A DNA stretch of 64,000 bases from Candidatus Marinacidobacterales bacterium (lineage in GTDB: Bacteria > Acidobacteriota > Vicinamibacteria > Marinacidobacterales > SMYC01). Made by a program: the position numbers and the translations under genes. A model generated the notes under the pieces. It saw only the letters and a program-made list of their open reading frames with translations. It searched no databases and had not been told where the DNA came from. Where the stretch lies: NCBI GenBank assembly GCA_965237955.1, contig OZ250169.1, forward strand, positions 1,024,001 through 1,088,000. The letters run 5' to 3'. Of the stretch, positions 23,761-49,561 are shown piece after piece (the first letter of the stretch is position 1; every line of letters begins with the position of its first letter).

Positions 23761-24750
23761 CTAGGGTTCATCGGTCGGCGCCGACGTGTTGATGTCTGGG
23801 TAGAGCCACGAGTGTTCGAGTCCGGCGTGTCGCTTCCCGTATCGTTCCGGTATGTTCTGTGTCCAGTTGCTGGGCAACGTCAGACAGCACACCAGTAAAA
23901 CAACGAGTACGATTCTCTGTAACACGAATGGCGCTTTTTCAGGCGGGGCTTCCACCTCCAGTGCCTCTCTGGCACCACTTCGCAGCCGACCCAGACGCCG
24001 AATGCGCGATCGGATCAAAAAAACGACACCGATCGACACCATGATGAGGTTCAGGGTCTGCCCGGTCCCGAGAGCCAGACGGTGAGTCGGATAGTCGCGA
24101 AACAGATCAATGAATACACGCAAGAACGCATACCAGAAGACGAAACGAGCTGCGGTTGCCCCCGGCGTTGGGTTCATCTTTCGAACACGGAGGAGGAAAG
24201 GCACCAGCAGAAGATTCTTGATGCCGTCATAGAGAACCACCGGATGCCGGATTCCAACTGCGTCGGGAAACCGCACGCCCCACGGCACATCGGTGAGAGC
24301 ACCCACGATCTGGCCGTCGATGAAGTTCCCGATCCTTCCCATTCCCATCAGAAACGAACCGGGGATCACGACTGCATCGAACAGCGCGAGCAGGTCCTTT
24401 CGATAGAGCAAGGCGAAGGAGGTGACAGCTACAGTCGCTCCGAGAAGGACCCCGTGAGACGCCAGGCCCCCAAGCCAGTATGCCGGAATGAGGGTAGGGT
24501 GCGCGCTGTAGAAGGGCCACTCGTCGAATGCGACTTCGATGAGACGCGCCCCGACCAAAACGCCCACCACGATGAAAAGGGTGAGGGTGTATACGTCTCT
24601 GGAAGTGAGTCCGAGCCGAAGCCTGTGGCGGCGCAGAAACAGATGCAAATGCAGGAATCCCAGCGAATAGCTAAGCCCATACCACCAGAGATAGACGCCG
24701 CCCACTTCGGCAATGATCGGATCGACATTATGGACATAGGGTCCGAACAT
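23761..24750 (-). CDS. lgt: Prolipoprotein diacylglyceryl transferase
   Basis: WYGLSY, GGLASHG, GRIGNFIDG, RHPVVLY. Confidence 0.9.
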   Translation of the reverse strand: MFGPYVHNVDPIIAEVGGVYLWWYGLSYSLGFLHLHLFLRRHRLRLGLTSRDVYTLTLFIVVGVLVGARLIEVAFDEWPFYSAHPTLIPAYWLGGLASHGVLLGATVAVTSFALLYRKDLLALFDAVVIPGSFLMGMGRIGNFIDGQIVGALTDVPWGVRFPDAVGIRHPVVLYDGIKNLLLVPFLLRVRKMNPTPGATAARFVFWYAFLRVFIDLFRDYPTHRLALGTGQTLNLIMVSIGVVFLIRSRIRRLGRLRSGAREALEVEAPPEKAPFVLQRIVLVVLLVCCLTLPSNWTQNIPERYGKRHAGLEHSWLYPDINTSAPTDEP

Positions 24751-38653: not shown

Positions 38654-38756
38654 GTATTTTTTTTGACTCAATGTATTCTCCCATTTAATGATAGTTGTGT
38701 GAACATTGTTGTGGAACCCAAATAGTTATTTCATCTCTCAGATAAAGATCTCACGT

Positions 38757-40841
38757 TTACCTTAGGTATCTGTCAAACCATCTGACTATGTGCTGTTGCC
38801 TCTCCACTATGTGTTTGGGCCCTTTGATTCCGTGACCTTCTCCGGGGAAGCTGACGAACTCGACGACTCTATTCAGCTTCTTCAATGCTATGAAGAGCAT
38901 TTCAGCCTGCTCAATCGGGCAAACCCAGTCCAGCTCGGAATGGATGAGCAAGAGCGGCGTCTTCATATTCTTGACGTAGGTGATGGGGGACTTTTCTATG
39001 AACATCTGGGGGTCATCCCACGGTTCCTTCATCTCAGAGATCTCATGGGGCGAACCATGGTAGCTGAAGTGGTTGCTCATACTCGCCATCGAGATGGCCG
39101 TCTTGAACCGGTCCGTGTGCGCTATGATCCAGTTCGTCATGAAGCCGCCATAGGATCCGCCTGCGACCCCCAGCCTCTCCGGGTCGACGAAGGGATAAGT
39201 CTCGATAACATAATCTATGGCCTCCATGATGTCCCGGTAATCCCGATCACCCCAGTGGTCTGGGGCCTCAGCTGAGCGCACGAATAAGATGTCAGCTGCG
39301 AAGGATTCTCCGTACCCGGTACTGCCCCTATAGTTCGTGTAGACCACAGCAAAGCCGTGCTCCGCCAACACCTGGTAACCACGCCTCAATCCATATCTGT
39401 ATCCGCCTCTTGGCCCACCGTGAATAAAGCTGACCATCGGGTACTTCTCACCCTCTTTGAGTTCATGGGGCTTGACTATCCATCCCTGGACTTTGACGCC
39501 GTCGCTGGCGGTGAACCAGAACTCCTCGGGCTCGACAAGCCTCAGCTTCCCCAGGAGGGTCCTATTCATCTCCGTCCTCTTCGCTTGACCACCGTCGTCC
39601 AGGATCCAGAGCTCGCTGGGAGTCATGGGACCCGAGGCGTTGAAGGCGAAGACCTTCCCGGCCTCGTCCATGGTGAAGGAGCCGATGTTCATCTTTCCCT
39701 CCGTCAAGGCCTCGACCTCCCCCTCAAGGCTCACCCTGTGAATATGACGGGTGCCGTGGTTGGGGAACTTGACGTAGACGTACTTCGAGTCTGGGGACCA
39801 CTTGACCGAGGCTCCTCTGGCGACCGTCCGGTCGAAGTCAGCAGTGAGGCACTTGGGCTCGCCGCCCTTTACTGGCAAGACCCAGATGTCGGCATTTCTG
39901 TACACGTGGCGCCTGTGGGAATCACGCTCCTCCATGACGCGTCCACCGAAAGCGATGTACTCCCCATCCGGAGACCAATCCAGACTTTGTATACGGGCTC
40001 CCCGCCCCCTCCATAGGACTTCTGGATCTCCTCCTTTTGAGGAGATGGTGTAGATACGCCCGCGAGAGAAAAAGACTACGCGGCTGCCATCGGGGGACCA
40101 GTCGACCATATTTATGTTGAACTCTCCATCGGTCAGCTGCTTTACCTGACCGCTTTCGGGCTGGACTGAGAAGAGATGCCTCCACCTATCATGTATGAAT
40201 TCACGTTCCGATGGGGTCTTGTAAGGATAGCTTCTGATGATCTTGACGTCGCTGCCCTTCGCTCTCTCGCCTTTGAAGACGTTTGAGAGAAAAAGTATGG
40301 TCTTGCCGTCGGGGGACCAGGTGGGGCGCTCAACGCCTTCCTCTACAGAGGTAAGACATCTTGCCTCACCGCCGTCGGCAGGGATCACGAATATCTGCAT
40401 CCCTGGTTTATTCTCCTCGCTCAAACGATCGGAGAGGAAAAGGATGGTCTTCCCATCTGGGGACCATCTGGGATGGCTGTCGTTGCCGTTGCCGTATGTA
40501 AACTGTTTCGGCTCTTTCTCATCCAAAGGGAGGAGCCATATGTGGCTGTGGTATCTGTCCTCTTTCACGTTCGCGGTCGTGTAAGTGAAGAGAACTTTGG
40601 TACCGTCAGGGGATATCTGTGGATCCGATACAGGTTGCCCAGGAAAAATTGGCGTGATCCTGTAATCTTCCAGTTTTTTCATTCCCAACGCTTTGTTAGG
40701 GTTATCAGGATTGCCAGGTGGGTTTTCAGGCTTGCCTCTTGTTGTTCTTACTTGGCCTTCACTAAAGTCTATAAAAACCAAAGCAAAAGCCAGGAAGGCC
40801 ACCAATCCAAAAAGTTTCAGATTATGGATTTTTTTCATCAT
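38757..40841 (-). CDS. S9-family peptidase (PD40 propeller) with added N-terminal export leader
   Basis: IHGGP, GGSYGG, IHSELDWVCP, FPGEGH; repeated WSPDG. Confidence 0.93.
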   Translation of the reverse strand: MMKKIHNLKLFGLVAFLAFALVFIDFSEGQVRTTRGKPENPPGNPDNPNKALGMKKLEDYRITPIFPGQPVSDPQISPDGTKVLFTYTTANVKEDRYHSHIWLLPLDEKEPKQFTYGNGNDSHPRWSPDGKTILFLSDRLSEENKPGMQIFVIPADGGEARCLTSVEEGVERPTWSPDGKTILFLSNVFKGERAKGSDVKIIRSYPYKTPSEREFIHDRWRHLFSVQPESGQVKQLTDGEFNINMVDWSPDGSRVVFFSRGRIYTISSKGGDPEVLWRGRGARIQSLDWSPDGEYIAFGGRVMEERDSHRRHVYRNADIWVLPVKGGEPKCLTADFDRTVARGASVKWSPDSKYVYVKFPNHGTRHIHRVSLEGEVEALTEGKMNIGSFTMDEAGKVFAFNASGPMTPSELWILDDGGQAKRTEMNRTLLGKLRLVEPEEFWFTASDGVKVQGWIVKPHELKEGEKYPMVSFIHGGPRGGYRYGLRRGYQVLAEHGFAVVYTNYRGSTGYGESFAADILFVRSAEAPDHWGDRDYRDIMEAIDYVIETYPFVDPERLGVAGGSYGGFMTNWIIAHTDRFKTAISMASMSNHFSYHGSPHEISEMKEPWDDPQMFIEKSPITYVKNMKTPLLLIHSELDWVCPIEQAEMLFIALKKLNRVVEFVSFPGEGHGIKGPKHIVERQQHIVRWFDRYLR

Positions 40842-40893
40842 GTCCTCCTTATTTTAAAGGATAGGAAAAATCATAGCTTCGCTGATGGGTGCC

Positions 40894-41008
40894 TGTGCCA
40901 ATTTTCGCAGGGTGCATGAGAGAAGGTTCCATTTCAGTACCTCGTGGAGCATAGCAAAGCCCAAGAGCGGCAGGTCGAGGACCGCGGATCGAGTTTATGA
41001 AAGGCACA
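40894..41008. mobile_element. Putative ~115-bp MITE (CCTGTGCC...GGCACAGG) carrying TGCTATGCT
   Basis: 8-bp IR; TGTGCCTTTCATAAACTCGATCCG resembles other TGT ends; degenerate homolog at 46924-47010. Confidence 0.5.
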
Positions 41009-41163
41009 GGAAGCCGCTCGGCAGGTCAAGTAAGGGCAGTTACTTCAGCTCGCGTTCGATCGCTGCTCGATCGCGCCGTCAAGAGGGCAAGTGACGCCTC
41101 CGGGATACAAGAAACACTGGCACGCTTGAGTTTTGGTGTTAGACCATGAGATTTGGATGGCGG

Positions 41164-41234
41164 GACCGGTATGAATCGAGAGGTTCACGTACCGTTCTGA
41201 GGGGGGCTGGGGTGAAATTCCCAGGCCTACTCAC
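41164..41234 (+). ncRNA. Orphan group II intron domains V-VI
   Basis: GACCGGTATGAATC-GAGA-GGTTCACGTACCGTTC, then GGCTGGGGTGAAATTCCCAGGCCTACTCAC. Confidence 0.8.
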
Positions 41235-41400
41235 CTTTCGAATCGACTCTGATTGTCCTCCACAGACCGTAAAAGCCGACCAGAAACCGATCATGCAACC
41301 AAGAACAAAAAAGTTAAGCTACCTCACCTATGACTTACTCCTAACAGCTGCTTTTGTCTGAAGCCGTAAAAGCTTGCAACGTTATGTCATTGATGTAAAG

Positions 41401-42915
41401 CTAATATGGATTCGACGGCATCATATCCCACGCTTGAAGTGTCGGAACCTTGGTCAGGCCACCCTTCGAGAACAAGACCACGCCTTGGCTGTCTGTGCGC
41501 CTCGGATAGATGCGTCGCATCACCGCCTGGCGATTGTTGGCAAAAACCTCGATTACCGACTTGTCCACAAAAACTCGCAGTTTTAGCGGCTCACCGGGCT
41601 TCAATTCAAACGGTCCCGCTTCCACTGACTTCGGCCCTTCGCTCAGGCTCGACTCAGTGGTGTCGACCTTGAGTTTTTTCTCGTTCGCATCGTAAAAGAC
41701 AAGCGTCTCCTCTTCACCGCCCGGCGAGGCACAGACCTTCACACCGAACTGCTCGGCACCGTCGGGTATCATTTCAATCAACAGTTCAATGCTGTTTCCG
41801 CGAATGTTCTCCAATGGCATCTCGCTGTCGGCCTGAATAGTCAAATTCTTAATCTCCTTCGGATTGTATCGCAGCACTTCCAGTTCCTTCGGCGGCCACA
41901 TCCGCAGCATGCCGTCTTCTCCCAACGCTAGGACACGAGGCAGGCTGTACGTGCCCAACCATCCGCTGGTTGGCTTCTTGTCCATACCCCAGGCCTTGTT
42001 AAAAATCCAGGCCCACATGATCCGGCGTCCCTTGTCATCCAACAAACTCTCCGGGGCAAAGAAGCTCCTGTCCACCCAACTCATTTGCTCATGGTATTCG
42101 GGATAGAACTTCTCGTTCTTCCACTGGCCCAGGTAATAGCGAGCACCAAGCGGGTGACTGATACACAGAAGCATGTGTTTATTGCCCAGCTTGAAAAAAT
42201 CAGGGCAGGACACGTCTTCGTTGATGTCTACACCCTCAAGACTATGGGCCATCAAGTCACCGACATACTTCCATTCGCCGTCCAGGCTGTCAGACTTGGC
42301 GATTGCGGGTCTTTCCCCGCCGAAGATGGCGTAGTACGTATTGCCCTCAACCCAGCCGTGCGGGTCCCATGACCGGTACTTGCCATGATGAGGGTCACCC
42401 TCACTGGTTTCTGGAGTAATAGGATTTGAATCCAGCTTCTTCCAGTAGTTCAGGTCATCATCGAGGGCAACTGCCATAGCGTTGCCCTGGCCTACCTGGT
42501 GATAAACTATAGTAGGCACGCCTTCTTTGTTGATGAAGGTGTTTCCGCTGAATATGCCGTCAATCAGTCCTGTTGGGTGGTGACGCCAGTGAACAAGGTC
42601 TACGCTTGATACGTGGCCCCAGCTTGATACGTGGCCCCCGTTCTGCCCCTTGTAGTCCTGGAAAATATAGAAAAGATGGTATCGACCTTTCCAGAATATG
42701 GCTCCGTTGACATCACCGCCTTCCCAAGCAACAAAGTGGTATCCCGGCCGATATGGGTCTTGCAACAGCTCTTCCCTCAAGGCCCGAGTGTTCCGCATCA
42801 TTTCGGACAGATTTGCTTGCACCCCCGCCGTGCTACGATCGCACCGCGCCAGAATGACCGCCACAATGGAGAAGAATAAGAAAATCAAAAAGGCTTTTAA
42901 ACTCGTTCTTTTCAT
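41401..42915 (-). CDS. Glycoside hydrolase family 32 protein, exported
   Basis: YRPGYHF, DVNG, YHLFY, WGHVSSVDLVHW, FFAPES, LRVFVDKSVIEVFAN. Confidence 0.9.
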   Translation of the reverse strand: MKRTSLKAFLIFLFFSIVAVILARCDRSTAGVQANLSEMMRNTRALREELLQDPYRPGYHFVAWEGGDVNGAIFWKGRYHLFYIFQDYKGQNGGHVSSWGHVSSVDLVHWRHHPTGLIDGIFSGNTFINKEGVPTIVYHQVGQGNAMAVALDDDLNYWKKLDSNPITPETSEGDPHHGKYRSWDPHGWVEGNTYYAIFGGERPAIAKSDSLDGEWKYVGDLMAHSLEGVDINEDVSCPDFFKLGNKHMLLCISHPLGARYYLGQWKNEKFYPEYHEQMSWVDRSFFAPESLLDDKGRRIMWAWIFNKAWGMDKKPTSGWLGTYSLPRVLALGEDGMLRMWPPKELEVLRYNPKEIKNLTIQADSEMPLENIRGNSIELLIEMIPDGAEQFGVKVCASPGGEEETLVFYDANEKKLKVDTTESSLSEGPKSVEAGPFELKPGEPLKLRVFVDKSVIEVFANNRQAVMRRIYPRRTDSQGVVLFSKGGLTKVPTLQAWDMMPSNPY

Positions 42916-46838: not shown

Positions 46839-47031
46839 GGTATCGTTGTCTCCCGTCGAGCGCGGCCCGAATTATGCCTGCACTCACCTTCTGCTTCCCT
46901 GAAGGATTAGCCACACGTCGCTTCTGCCGCTCTTGGGCTTCTGCTATGCTCCAGCACGGACGGCATGGACATTTCTCTCATGCACGCGCTGAGAAAATTG
47001 GCGCCGGTACGCATCCTTTAAAAAGGAGGAC

Positions 47032-48411
47032 ATGATGAAAAAAATCCATAATTCGAAACTTTTTGGGTTGGTGGCCCTCCTGGCTTTTGCTTTGGTTTTT
47101 ATTGGTACAGACTTTATTGAAGGCCAAGTAAGAACAACAAGAGGCAAGCCTGAAAACCCACCTGGCAATCCTGATAACCCTAACAAAGGAGGCCATAAAA
47201 CCCAAGACCGCCCAGCAGACGTTGTGTTCTGGAATTGTTGTGAGGATCCTAGCGGAGGAGATCGTTCAGCGGTTAGTGACACATCTCCCCAGATAGATTC
47301 ATCTACTCAAACAAATACGTCACAATTTGCGAATGCGAAAGAAAAATTAATTAGCATGGGATTCAACGTACCTGGTGAATCACATAAGCAGGAGTTTGTA
47401 GGAAGCTTAGATATACCAATTGACATCAAAGATAGATTTTTGGAAATCTTAGACGCTATAACTAGCGTGTTAGGCAGCTATCCTAATTTTGTCTACGTCG
47501 CTTACAATCGAAATGGCACAGAAGCGGATGCCAAGCCTGTTTTTGACAGGTTGTCTGAAATTGATTTTTCACTAGATGGATTCACTATTGCCGAATTACA
47601 AAGGAAAGCAACCTGCCTTGGAGGATCCAATGCTGGGGAACCCAGAACAGTCACAACTGAACCTTATAGTGTATGCATTCAACATTTAGCTTTTATTCAA
47701 AATCCTTTTAATCATCCACCTCAAGAAACTAAAGCGCACCCAGACAAAATTTTAGGTAGGCGTGTACTTAATTATGCACATGAATATTTTCATCATTACG
47801 AACGAGCTCATGCCTTAGATAGGGGACTTAACTATCAAGGAGATCTAGAAAATCCTCAAACAACCGTGGATGCTCCACCGTGGTGGACAGAAGGAGCGGC
47901 AGTAGCATTCCAAAATGCATGGTATAAAGCAAACTGGAGTACCCTATCCTTTTTTGAAGGTAAAAAATGGGGAGATGTAAAAGTTAGCATTATGTTCAGT
48001 GATGATCCAGGAGTTTATAGAGAGTTTAGACGTGGCATTATGGATGCCCCTGGCAGGAAAAGAGAGGGTTGTACCCCAAATTTTAAAATGGGACCCTATA
48101 CCGACAGATATGACACCGAGCGAGCTCCAGATGCTGATCCATGTCGGGCTTTCATGTTAGCTGTACCATATATCGCATCGTTGACTTCGTACAAAACAGT
48201 GTTAATTGATATACCTCAAGATTACTATGATCTTGGTTTTTGGGGAGCTTTTGAAAAGCATGTGGGTATGAACAAACAGGAATTTTATGATAATTTTAAT
48301 GCCTTTTTGAGGTCTGGTAATCCAGAAGATGAACCACCTGAAGGTTGGGCTCCTCCTGAAGGCGATATAGCATCATATGCTAACTTTCTAGAAATAGTCC
48401 CTAAAAAATAG
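47032..48411 (+). CDS. AT-rich exported protein with HExxH motif (putative zinc metallopeptidase)
   Basis: AAGGAGG RBS; leader shared with the S9 gene; YAHEYFH...WWTEGAA. Confidence 0.8.
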   Translation: MMKKIHNSKLFGLVALLAFALVFIGTDFIEGQVRTTRGKPENPPGNPDNPNKGGHKTQDRPADVVFWNCCEDPSGGDRSAVSDTSPQIDSSTQTNTSQFANAKEKLISMGFNVPGESHKQEFVGSLDIPIDIKDRFLEILDAITSVLGSYPNFVYVAYNRNGTEADAKPVFDRLSEIDFSLDGFTIAELQRKATCLGGSNAGEPRTVTTEPYSVCIQHLAFIQNPFNHPPQETKAHPDKILGRRVLNYAHEYFHHYERAHALDRGLNYQGDLENPQTTVDAPPWWTEGAAVAFQNAWYKANWSTLSFFEGKKWGDVKVSIMFSDDPGVYREFRRGIMDAPGRKREGCTPNFKMGPYTDRYDTERAPDADPCRAFMLAVPYIASLTSYKTVLIDIPQDYYDLGFWGAFEKHVGMNKQEFYDNFNAFLRSGNPEDEPPEGWAPPEGDIASYANFLEIVPKK

Positions 48412-48474
48412 GCAATTGGTTTTTGGGACCGCATTGAGTTTGGCTCATTCTTATTAAATTTCCACCTTCTGACC

Positions 48475-49561
48475 TGCCTTGGTGCACAACTCGCGATCTC
48501 GGTCCACAATTGTCCTTTACTCACGGATTCGAGGTTCCCCATGAGCATTTTCAAACGCACTCAGCGGAAGTATGTGAAGAAGGCCTATCGCGTGAGGAAT
48601 TGGCGTGAATATGAGGCGGGTCTACGCAACCGTGGGAGCCTGACCGTCTGGATCTCGCTCACCGCCGGCAAGCTTGTGAACTGGGACGCGCCCCGGCCGA
48701 GGAGGAGGAAACCGAGCCGTCAACGCAAGTACTCGAACCACGCCATCGAGACGGCTGTCACCCTGGGCATGGTGTTTCATCTGTCATCTAGGCAGAGCGA
48801 GGGATTGCTGCGATCGTTGTTCGCTCTGATGAAGCTAGACAATGATGTGCCCGATCACACCACGATCTCGAGGCGCAAGGCGAAGCTGGGTAAGGTCCCC
48901 TTCTACCAAGACAAGCAGAAGACGCCGTTGCACATCTTGATCGACAGCAGCGGTCTCGCTGTCCACGCCGGCCAGCTGCGCAGAGCACCAAAGAGCAGGG
49001 ACTATCGCAAGCTCCATCTGTGTGTCGACGAGCAGAGTGGCGAAGTCGTCGCCGGCGAGCTGACGAGCAAAAGAGCCCGCGATTCATCGCGGGTTGCATC
49101 GCTTGTCGGACAGATCGACAGTCCCATCTCATCGGCCAGAGCTGACACCGCATACGACGCCAGCGGCGTCTATGAGGCGATCGAGAATCACAGCGCTCAT
49201 TGCTCGCCGAGGGTGCTGATACCGCCGCGCAAGGGCGCCCAGCTCGCATCGGGGCCGGCGAGCAGCCGACAGCGCAATCGCAACATTGCAGCACAAGCTC
49301 GGCTCGGCAAACGAAAGTGGCACACAGAATCGGGCTACAGCAAACGGAGCAAAGTCGAGACAACGTTCCATCGCTACAAGGCTATCGTGGGCTCAGCGAT
49401 GCGAGCGAGAGGGTTGGCGGCACAGAGAGTCGAGGCAAGGATCGGGTGCAAGATTCTGAACACCATGACGGCGCTCGGGATGCCTGATAGCGAGATGATC
49501 GGATGATGGGAGTCGGGGCCAAGCGAGCTCTCGGCCTCTATCGGAGTTGTGCACCAAGGCA
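48475..49561 (+). mobile_element. IS5-family (IS903-like) element, full length
   Basis: 18-bp IR TGCCTTGGTGCACAACTC; no TSD. Confidence 0.95.
48541..49506 (+). CDS. IS5 transposase
   Basis: YRVRNWREYEAGLRNRGSLTVW, IDSSGL, ADTAYD, YSKRSKVET. Confidence 0.95.
   Translation: MSIFKRTQRKYVKKAYRVRNWREYEAGLRNRGSLTVWISLTAGKLVNWDAPRPRRRKPSRQRKYSNHAIETAVTLGMVFHLSSRQSEGLLRSLFALMKLDNDVPDHTTISRRKAKLGKVPFYQDKQKTPLHILIDSSGLAVHAGQLRRAPKSRDYRKLHLCVDEQSGEVVAGELTSKRARDSSRVASLVGQIDSPISSARADTAYDASGVYEAIENHSAHCSPRVLIPPRKGAQLASGPASSRQRNRNIAAQARLGKRKWHTESGYSKRSKVETTFHRYKAIVGSAMRARGLAAQRVEARIGCKILNTMTALGMPDSEMIG

Follow-up and report, generated by a model that had tools for sequence, protein, structure and literature searches.

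Peptidase genes in a Candidatus Marinacidobacterales genome that probably join a leader of Aminicenantia-like origin to foreign bodies behind insertion-sequence ends

The closest described parallel to the genes analysed here is the erp family of Borrelia (ospE/ospF/elp; upstream homology box), in which, according to the accessible part of the source, one promoter, leader and sorting sequence heads bodies of many origins and the genes are shuffled by recombination (PMC10016077). The preliminary description of our locus had stated that no equivalent was known, a view that the erp genes contradict. A conserved leader plus first mature residues on bodies of independent origin is found here as well; however, Erp proteins, as presented in that part of the source, are lipoproteins encoded at one allelic cp32 prophage site behind a conserved promoter, whereas here the leaders of genes A and B have no lipobox Cys, the genes are scattered over the chromosome, the upstream region varies, and leader and bodies apparently come from different phyla or domains. 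The second parallel is the IS91/ISCR family. As far as the accessible portions of two papers go, the oriIS of ISCR1 carries outward promoters (PMC6218425), and the oriIS end of IS91 lies beside a target tetranucleotide and has subterminal palindrome(s) (PMC13181058). Here, too, co-oriented genes begin shortly after the 3' end of a Y2/HUH element, and a preferred tetranucleotide adjoins that end; but most of the ends are solo, several subtypes occur, CCTT is the usual tetranucleotide, the downstream genes include hydrolases instead of resistance genes, and the promoter is only a candidate. By analogy, the present genes would work like erp leaders combined with ISCR1 outward promoters, without being members of the erp family.

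Two further precedents concern signal peptides. Insertion of a whole N-terminal segment accounts for 34 signal peptide gains in Enterobacterales (PMC5952966), and the acquisition of a complete signal peptide by a non-exported protein is common to both cases; the available part of that paper names no donors and reports no IS nearby, whereas here the donor family is traceable and the leader is reused. In phytoplasmas, the SVM motif (PF12113), one presumed signal-peptide motif, occurs on SAP11 and SAP54 according to the accessible text of PMC8026896; it differs from the present leader, which matches no Pfam model, in sequence family and host. The accessible part of PMC12633904 contained nothing on shared leaders. 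Our literature searches for a three-source, cross-domain assembly showed no such case among the papers listed, and the name of the host order did not occur in the 12 papers that a search on it listed. Shared leaders and IS-supplied promoters are known already; the three-source, cross-domain assembly would be new.

The order Candidatus Marinacidobacterales belongs to the Acidobacteriota and is known from sponges. The window, that is, the whole stretch of 64,000 nucleotides analysed here, lies in a genome of this order (G000; 8.13 Mb, 60% GC, IS-rich). It contains gene A (40841-38757, minus strand), which encodes a 694-aa protein assigned to the S9 peptidases by Pfam, and gene B (47032-48411, plus strand), which encodes a 459-aa protein without a Pfam family. 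The segments 40973-40692 (minus strand) and 46924-47187 (plus strand) had been described as homologous, and the alignment agreed (80.8% identity over 292 columns, E 2e-75; coding arms 92-94% complementary); the motifs, RBS and leader peptide quoted at that time were likewise found in place. The claim that the homology ends at a Lys held for the A/B match, which stops at the Lys codon 40694-40692, but not for gene B, whose leader-derived part runs on. An assembly artefact was ruled out, because identical junctions recur in other assemblies (the P0003 cluster of 20 members; P0079-P0081) and in two further genomes of the order, G009 and G013. A contig of RNA run X1 covers 47016-47213; such contigs are uninformative on transcription, strand or start.

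The leader comprises an RBS, a signal peptide and a linker. In gene A, the RBS (40842..40850, minus strand) is part of a donor 5' UTR and recurs in the native loci L040 and L041. It is followed by a predicted Sec/SPase I signal peptide of residues 1-29 (40755..40841, minus strand), recognised by hydropathy and by the native homolog L036, with a basic n-region and a 15-residue h-region (mean Kyte-Doolittle 2.95, residues 10-24), and then by a Pro/Asn/Lys-rich linker (40692..40754, minus strand) that is common to genes B and C and of the type found in the native family. Cleavage would take place before Gln30, a position at which L036 reads A-H-A-Q. In gene B, the RBS (47023..47031, plus strand) was located by alignment with gene A, and the predicted signal peptide covers residues 1-31 (47032..47124, plus strand), appearing as a single low-confidence helix (9-21) in the structure model. 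Residues 32 to about 91 (47125..47304, plus strand; pLDDT below 50) consist of the linker and what appears to be a remnant of the native donor protein, as aligned with P0082, P0250, P0252 and P0260. Since gene B matches copy C for 10 codons past the Lys and the native family proteins to about residue 91, it seems to keep the longest piece of the donor gene. An Rfam scan of the leader and of the upstream region returned nothing. A profile search of solved structures gave no match (best E 0.98).

A search for the leader across the genome, as the preliminary description had suggested, recovered more than the two window copies: G000 holds six, five on S9 paralogs and one on the HExxH protein of gene B. 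Of the five S9 copies, four (A, C, D and E) are intact, while the gene of copy F is broken by an IS and truncated. Because the genome holds six leader copies, a one-off duplication between the two window genes was ruled out. The S9 leaders are nested versions (prefixes or deletions) of the N-terminus of gene B, ending after the RTT codons in D, after PNK in A and after QDRPA in C, with copy E having the junction of C plus an internal deletion. The 3' leader junctions thus differ between copies; moreover, no terminal repeats bounding the leader and no machinery that mobilises it were found. The leader itself is not a transposable unit.

Next, the distribution of the leader was examined in sequence databases. 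A leader profile gave 40 matches in 1.84 billion representatives, 39 of them at the N-terminus; P0282 was left out of the 40 profile matches, its match being internal. The leader heads at least five body groups without a BLASTP link between them (E 1e-4, with 55 residues removed first), FG-GAP propellers and several unnamed families among them. A signal-peptide and linker family without a Pfam model appears to head many body types. The expectation that many unrelated bodies would carry this leader was accordingly correct across databases, with at least five further groups, but not within the present lineage, in which only two such body families were found. One family member, from G552, is named Ca. 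Aminicenantes, and ten others that were looked up carry no taxon; within the Aminicenantia class, 3 of 201 genomes had a match to the profile, as did 1 of 400 genomes from the rest of the phylum. Leader DNA in the native AT-rich loci L040 and L041 is 89% identical to that of copy C. The UTRs of E and F match these two loci at 74-81%, and those of C and D match another AT-rich locus, L039, at 93-98%. The stretch of donor UTR retained in the copies is only 9 to about 100 bp long, and the DNA further upstream differs from copy to copy. L039 itself, a contig of 40.6% GC, carries a leader-HExxH fusion together with a longer AT-rich native upstream region and the 3' flank of gene B. The leader is likely to represent the 5' end of a family of uncharacterised secreted proteins from Aminicenantia-like bacteria, and in view of the matches of L039, L040 and L041 to the UTRs, leader and fusion, the fusions probably formed in an AT-rich donor. 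No donor genome with an S9 fusion was present among 251 Aminicenantia-class genomes, which yielded one S9 match (39% identity, with a different signal peptide). L035 and L015 were rejected as chance matches. In the native family (P0250-P0289, L036, L040-L043), the signal peptide and the Lys/Pro linker are common to secreted proteins whose bodies vary, and one member, P0283, is a chimera that combines two of the body types.

The preliminary description had placed the upstream part within a MITE-like unit and had joined promoter, RBS and leader into one mobile unit; neither view stood. The region upstream of gene A (module U; 40861..40973, minus strand) is best read as an oriIS-like 3' terminus from an IS91-family element whose transposase is missing, as judged from the contexts of the related copies u3 and u5, which start directly after the RAPP-stop of Y2 transposase remnants. 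Its last bases are CCTAT, after which comes the tetranucleotide CCTT (40860-40857). The module U of gene B (46846..47015, plus strand) is of a second subtype that lacks its last ~25 bp; it is about 80% identical to that of gene A and 93% to copies u2 and u3, and it follows the end of an rve_3 remnant. What had been taken for the left arm of the MITE is a 32-bp terminal stub of an rve_3 (IS481-like) element (40977..41008, minus strand), and the same end at G000:4145278 and 5348783 adjoins rve_3-like transposase remnants. The right arm is contained in a longer repeat, which continues to 40857 and recurs without the left arm; the latter is missing from the other U copies of G000, including copy u1 (95.8% over 119 bp); inverted repeats bounding the repeated unit are absent. 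The MITE was hence rejected as a chance pairing of the rve_3 stub with a motif inside U.

Several features of related ends fit this assignment to the IS91 family. RAPP lies 227-228 bp ahead of the end motif in four end families, and related end families finish 199-263 bp past Y2 remnants in a CTAT motif, although only 7 of 23 Y2 remnants have a CTAT-type end motif within 700 bp. CCTT follows 16 of 27 oriIS-like ends, which were hand-picked. Both window copies of U are solo, in a genome with 14 PF04986 matches. U also contains an extended -10-like motif (40948..40956, minus strand; TGn-TAT-CT kept in related copies) as a candidate outward promoter; a sigma-70 consensus scan of both U copies found 0 sites. 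By analogy with ISCR1, it is plausible that U acts as an outward promoter. Of the 27 hand-picked oriIS-like ends, 11 had a co-oriented gene start within 200 bp; the corresponding figures were 19 of 208 for IS5 ends and 35 of 600 for random CCTT sites, and the excess over IS5 ends had p 8e-5 (0.002 without the three leader genes). This resembles the ISCR1 pattern, here in a marine genome and outside antibiotic resistance.

Genome-wide, many solo IS91-type ends, of about eight subtypes, closely precede co-oriented genes, several of which have signal-peptide-like starts, and solo oriIS-like ends before genes are about four- to five-fold enriched over IS5 ends; examples on C1 are at 24026 (-), 3998304 (-), 6404168 (-), 8056635 (-), 1742876 (-) and 947916 (+). 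In addition, an 839-bp piece comprising a gene and U is 97.6% identical between L027:3085-3922 and G000:C1:1225432-1226270; it precedes a C-type gene in L027 and unrelated DNA in G000, and looks like a unit moved by its oriIS end.

A question raised by this arrangement is whether promoter, RBS, signal peptide and linker could form one mobile cassette (MITE plus leader) placed before captured ORFs. U precedes both window copies and also the C and B types in G013, both bodies are foreign, and the higher share of gene starts near oriIS-like ends than near IS5 ends would suit such a cassette. However, U and leader are mostly found apart: only two of the eight U copies in G000 precede a leader, the other six do not, and four of the six leader copies are without U. 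Furthermore, the upstream ends and their junctions differ, with intact oriIS-like ends of three different subtypes at A, D and E, a fourth subtype with a deleted tip at B, a remnant beside another IS at C and none at F; in G009 and G013, an oriIS-type end was seen at four of nine leader copies and at none of the other five. The unbounded leader and its variable 3' junctions also speak against a cassette, as does the leader-only search among proteins of 252-804 aa, in which nine of 32 candidates formed leader-bearing clusters (six S9, two HExxH and one native). We therefore regard the cassette as highly improbable and, as a single unit, largely refuted. The leader and the upstream IS91 end appear instead to be two separable modules.

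We then turned to the bodies. That of gene A (38757..40691, minus strand) comprises a beta-propeller and a catalytic domain with the nucleophile motif at 39161-39147; PF00326 scored 170.8 bits against a cut-off of 22.6, and the propeller and Ser-Asp-His motifs were read from the translation. Three read-through codons precede a Met at 40682, which is the fourth codon after the Lys (ATG 40682-40680), in agreement with the internal Met reported earlier. Because 85 of 110 leaderless S9 homologs begin with an M-K-K-L-like start, this Met (MKKLE) appears to be the relic start of the S9 body. Among the best 120 S9 matches, 110 are without the leader and 10 carry it, and every taxon name shown is Bathyarchaeia; the S9 bodies are likely of archaeal origin. 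Their GC3 is 0.64-0.70, compared with 0.73-0.86 for three host genes. An AT-rich, non-coding 3' tail (38687..38756, minus strand, in gene A), recognised by inter-copy identity, is common to A, C, D and E and is 85-94% identical among them, whereas the bodies are mostly 50-85% identical.

The leader is predicted to export these enzymes. The N-terminal segment might alternatively be an uncleaved anchor, or the S9 enzyme might be made mainly from the relic Met and stay cytoplasmic, given that this archaeal Met is still in frame in gene A and that Ser or Ile at -3 and Gly at -1, though acceptable, depart from the canonical Ala-X-Ala. Yet the internal Met is no longer present in C, D and E, a strong RBS sits at the leader, and the native homolog has A-H-A-Q at the same site, so we consider a cytoplasmic or anchored product very unlikely and retain export as the prediction.

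The body of gene B (47320..48411, plus strand) carries the HExxH motif at 47779-47793 and, from conservation and fold, the candidate third ligand Glu287; the downstream Glu lies on a second helix in sequence and model, and H250, E251, H254 and E287 are conserved in 90-100% of 60 homologs. The structure model of this body (pLDDT 81) is mostly helical, and the known folds that it matches best are those of gluzincins (Z 10.9, rmsd 4.7, 231 aligned); Foldseek gave a best E of 0.013, and VIA gave Z 10.9 and 10.8, with M30 and M1 tied. Family leads came from Atlas rows with M61 in 13% and M9 in 32% of members. Judging from the model and the motif, the body is a probable gluzincin zinc metallopeptidase. 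It is more AT-rich, as had been noted (GC 0.41, GC3 0.28). Of 74 HExxH matches, 70 are without this leader and four have it, and the names shown include SAR202 and Dehalococcoidia. The closest homologs of both bodies thus lack the leader and come from other taxa, as anticipated. The 3' flank (48412..48478, plus strand), apparently imported with gene B, is also found 3' of the homolog in L039 and in L028. One leaderless HExxH homolog, P0006 (71% identical), begins with a related sequence of lipoprotein type, in which a lipobox-like Cys takes the place of the SPase I-type site, and the 22 other leaderless N-termini inspected differ.

Having compared the bodies with their homologs, we examined how leader and S9 body came together. 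Synonymous differences between the leaders of A, C, D and E amount to 5-27% of sites, whereas the synonymous divergence of the bodies is 59-62% between A/E and C/D and 31-40% within each group; for the pair E/C, the synonymous difference is 0.05 in the leader and 0.62 in the body. Diversifying selection as the source of body divergence was unsupported (dN/dS 0.19-0.55 among S9 bodies). In trees of 21 S9 sequences (6 leader-bearing and 15 leaderless, picked from an earlier tree), the leader-bearing proteins were monophyletic in 0% of 200 bootstrap trees, and the AU test rejected their single clade (p 4.8e-10); the grouping tested was named after a first tree had been seen, and mosaic genes strain or violate the tree models used. 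Leaderless P0108 is 81% identical to C, while C and A are only 65.5% identical, and leaderless P0086 is sister to A and E. Since the leader-bearing S9s do not form one clade and their leaders are far closer than their bodies, it is likely that the leader was grafted or spread more than once, although the S9 tree is equally compatible with one leader gain and two losses.

Another account of these data would be a single S9 fusion followed by duplication and gene conversion at the ends, with gene B as a separate one-off chimera. The nesting of all S9 leaders within the N-terminus of B, the junction common to C and E, and the 3' tail common to all four S9 copies are consistent with it, as is the confinement of the leader-bearing S9s to a small part of the tree with long branches. 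On the other hand, the placement of P0086 and P0108 within the group has starred support, P0086 has the same short form of the C-terminal loop as A and E, and two UTR types exist. We consider a single fusion unlikely; the likeliest S9 history combines a small number of fusions with recombination at the first and last S9 codons, which are conserved. Two side observations were made on S9 genes. L005 (G000:C1:3014918-3016852) encodes a more distant S9 of archaeal-looking type, 43% identical to A, whose signal-peptide-like start is of another kind and may reflect a leader gained independently a second time. In L001 (copy C) and L002 (copy D), about 30 residues are missing in frame after the catalytic Ser region relative to P0108, which may alter substrate access.

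The S9 types and gene B were found in 3 of 55 genomes of the order (G000, G009 and G013), of which G009 and G013 represent another genus and hold four and five copies. Their chimeric genes are 93-98% identical in DNA to those of G000, compared with 75-76% for ribosomal protein S1; therefore, whole chimeric genes, not the leader alone, are likely to have moved between genera recently. The genes sit in different surroundings between genomes, at scattered, non-syntenic chromosomal sites.

Overall, we regard it as probable that these are chimeric peptidase genes in which a leader from an Aminicenantia-like family was placed on foreign bodies, which moved as whole genes and took their promoters from IS ends. 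The 5' end of the leader family (UTR, RBS, predicted Sec signal and Pro-rich linker) would have been joined in frame to S9 and gluzincin-like bodies, routing both enzymes out of the cytoplasm. Rare in-frame fusions to foreign bodies probably took place in an AT-rich donor with several leader-family paralogs; homologous recombination, acting where the first and last S9 codons are conserved, would then have spread leader and 3' tail among already-diverged bodies, and short in-frame deletions would have trimmed the linker. At least two genera of Ca. Marinacidobacterales would have received the finished genes in one piece. There, IS ends may repeatedly have taken the place of the donor's AT-rich promoter, the commonest being oriIS-like ends of the IS91 family, which would supply an outward promoter as ISCR1 does. 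This would make a traceable case of a horizontally acquired cytoplasmic enzyme becoming a likely exported one, in which the sequence still reveals the family that donated the signal, the relic start codon of the body and the replacement of the promoter. A broader proposal is that the leader is a dedicated, recombinogenic expression and export front end of Aminicenantia-like bacteria that repeatedly captures foreign bodies, while IS91-type ends supply promoters and carry the completed genes from host to host. We hold this to be improbable; if true, it would amount to a two-part natural pipeline that makes foreign cytoplasmic enzymes, archaeal ones included, secreted.

Finally, a remnant of group II intron domain V/VI (41162-41235) lies between gene A and a neighbouring GH32 gene (41401-42915, minus strand), the GC of which, 0.53, is below that of host genes. 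A GH32-like fragment, judged by eye, also adjoins the fusion gene in L039.
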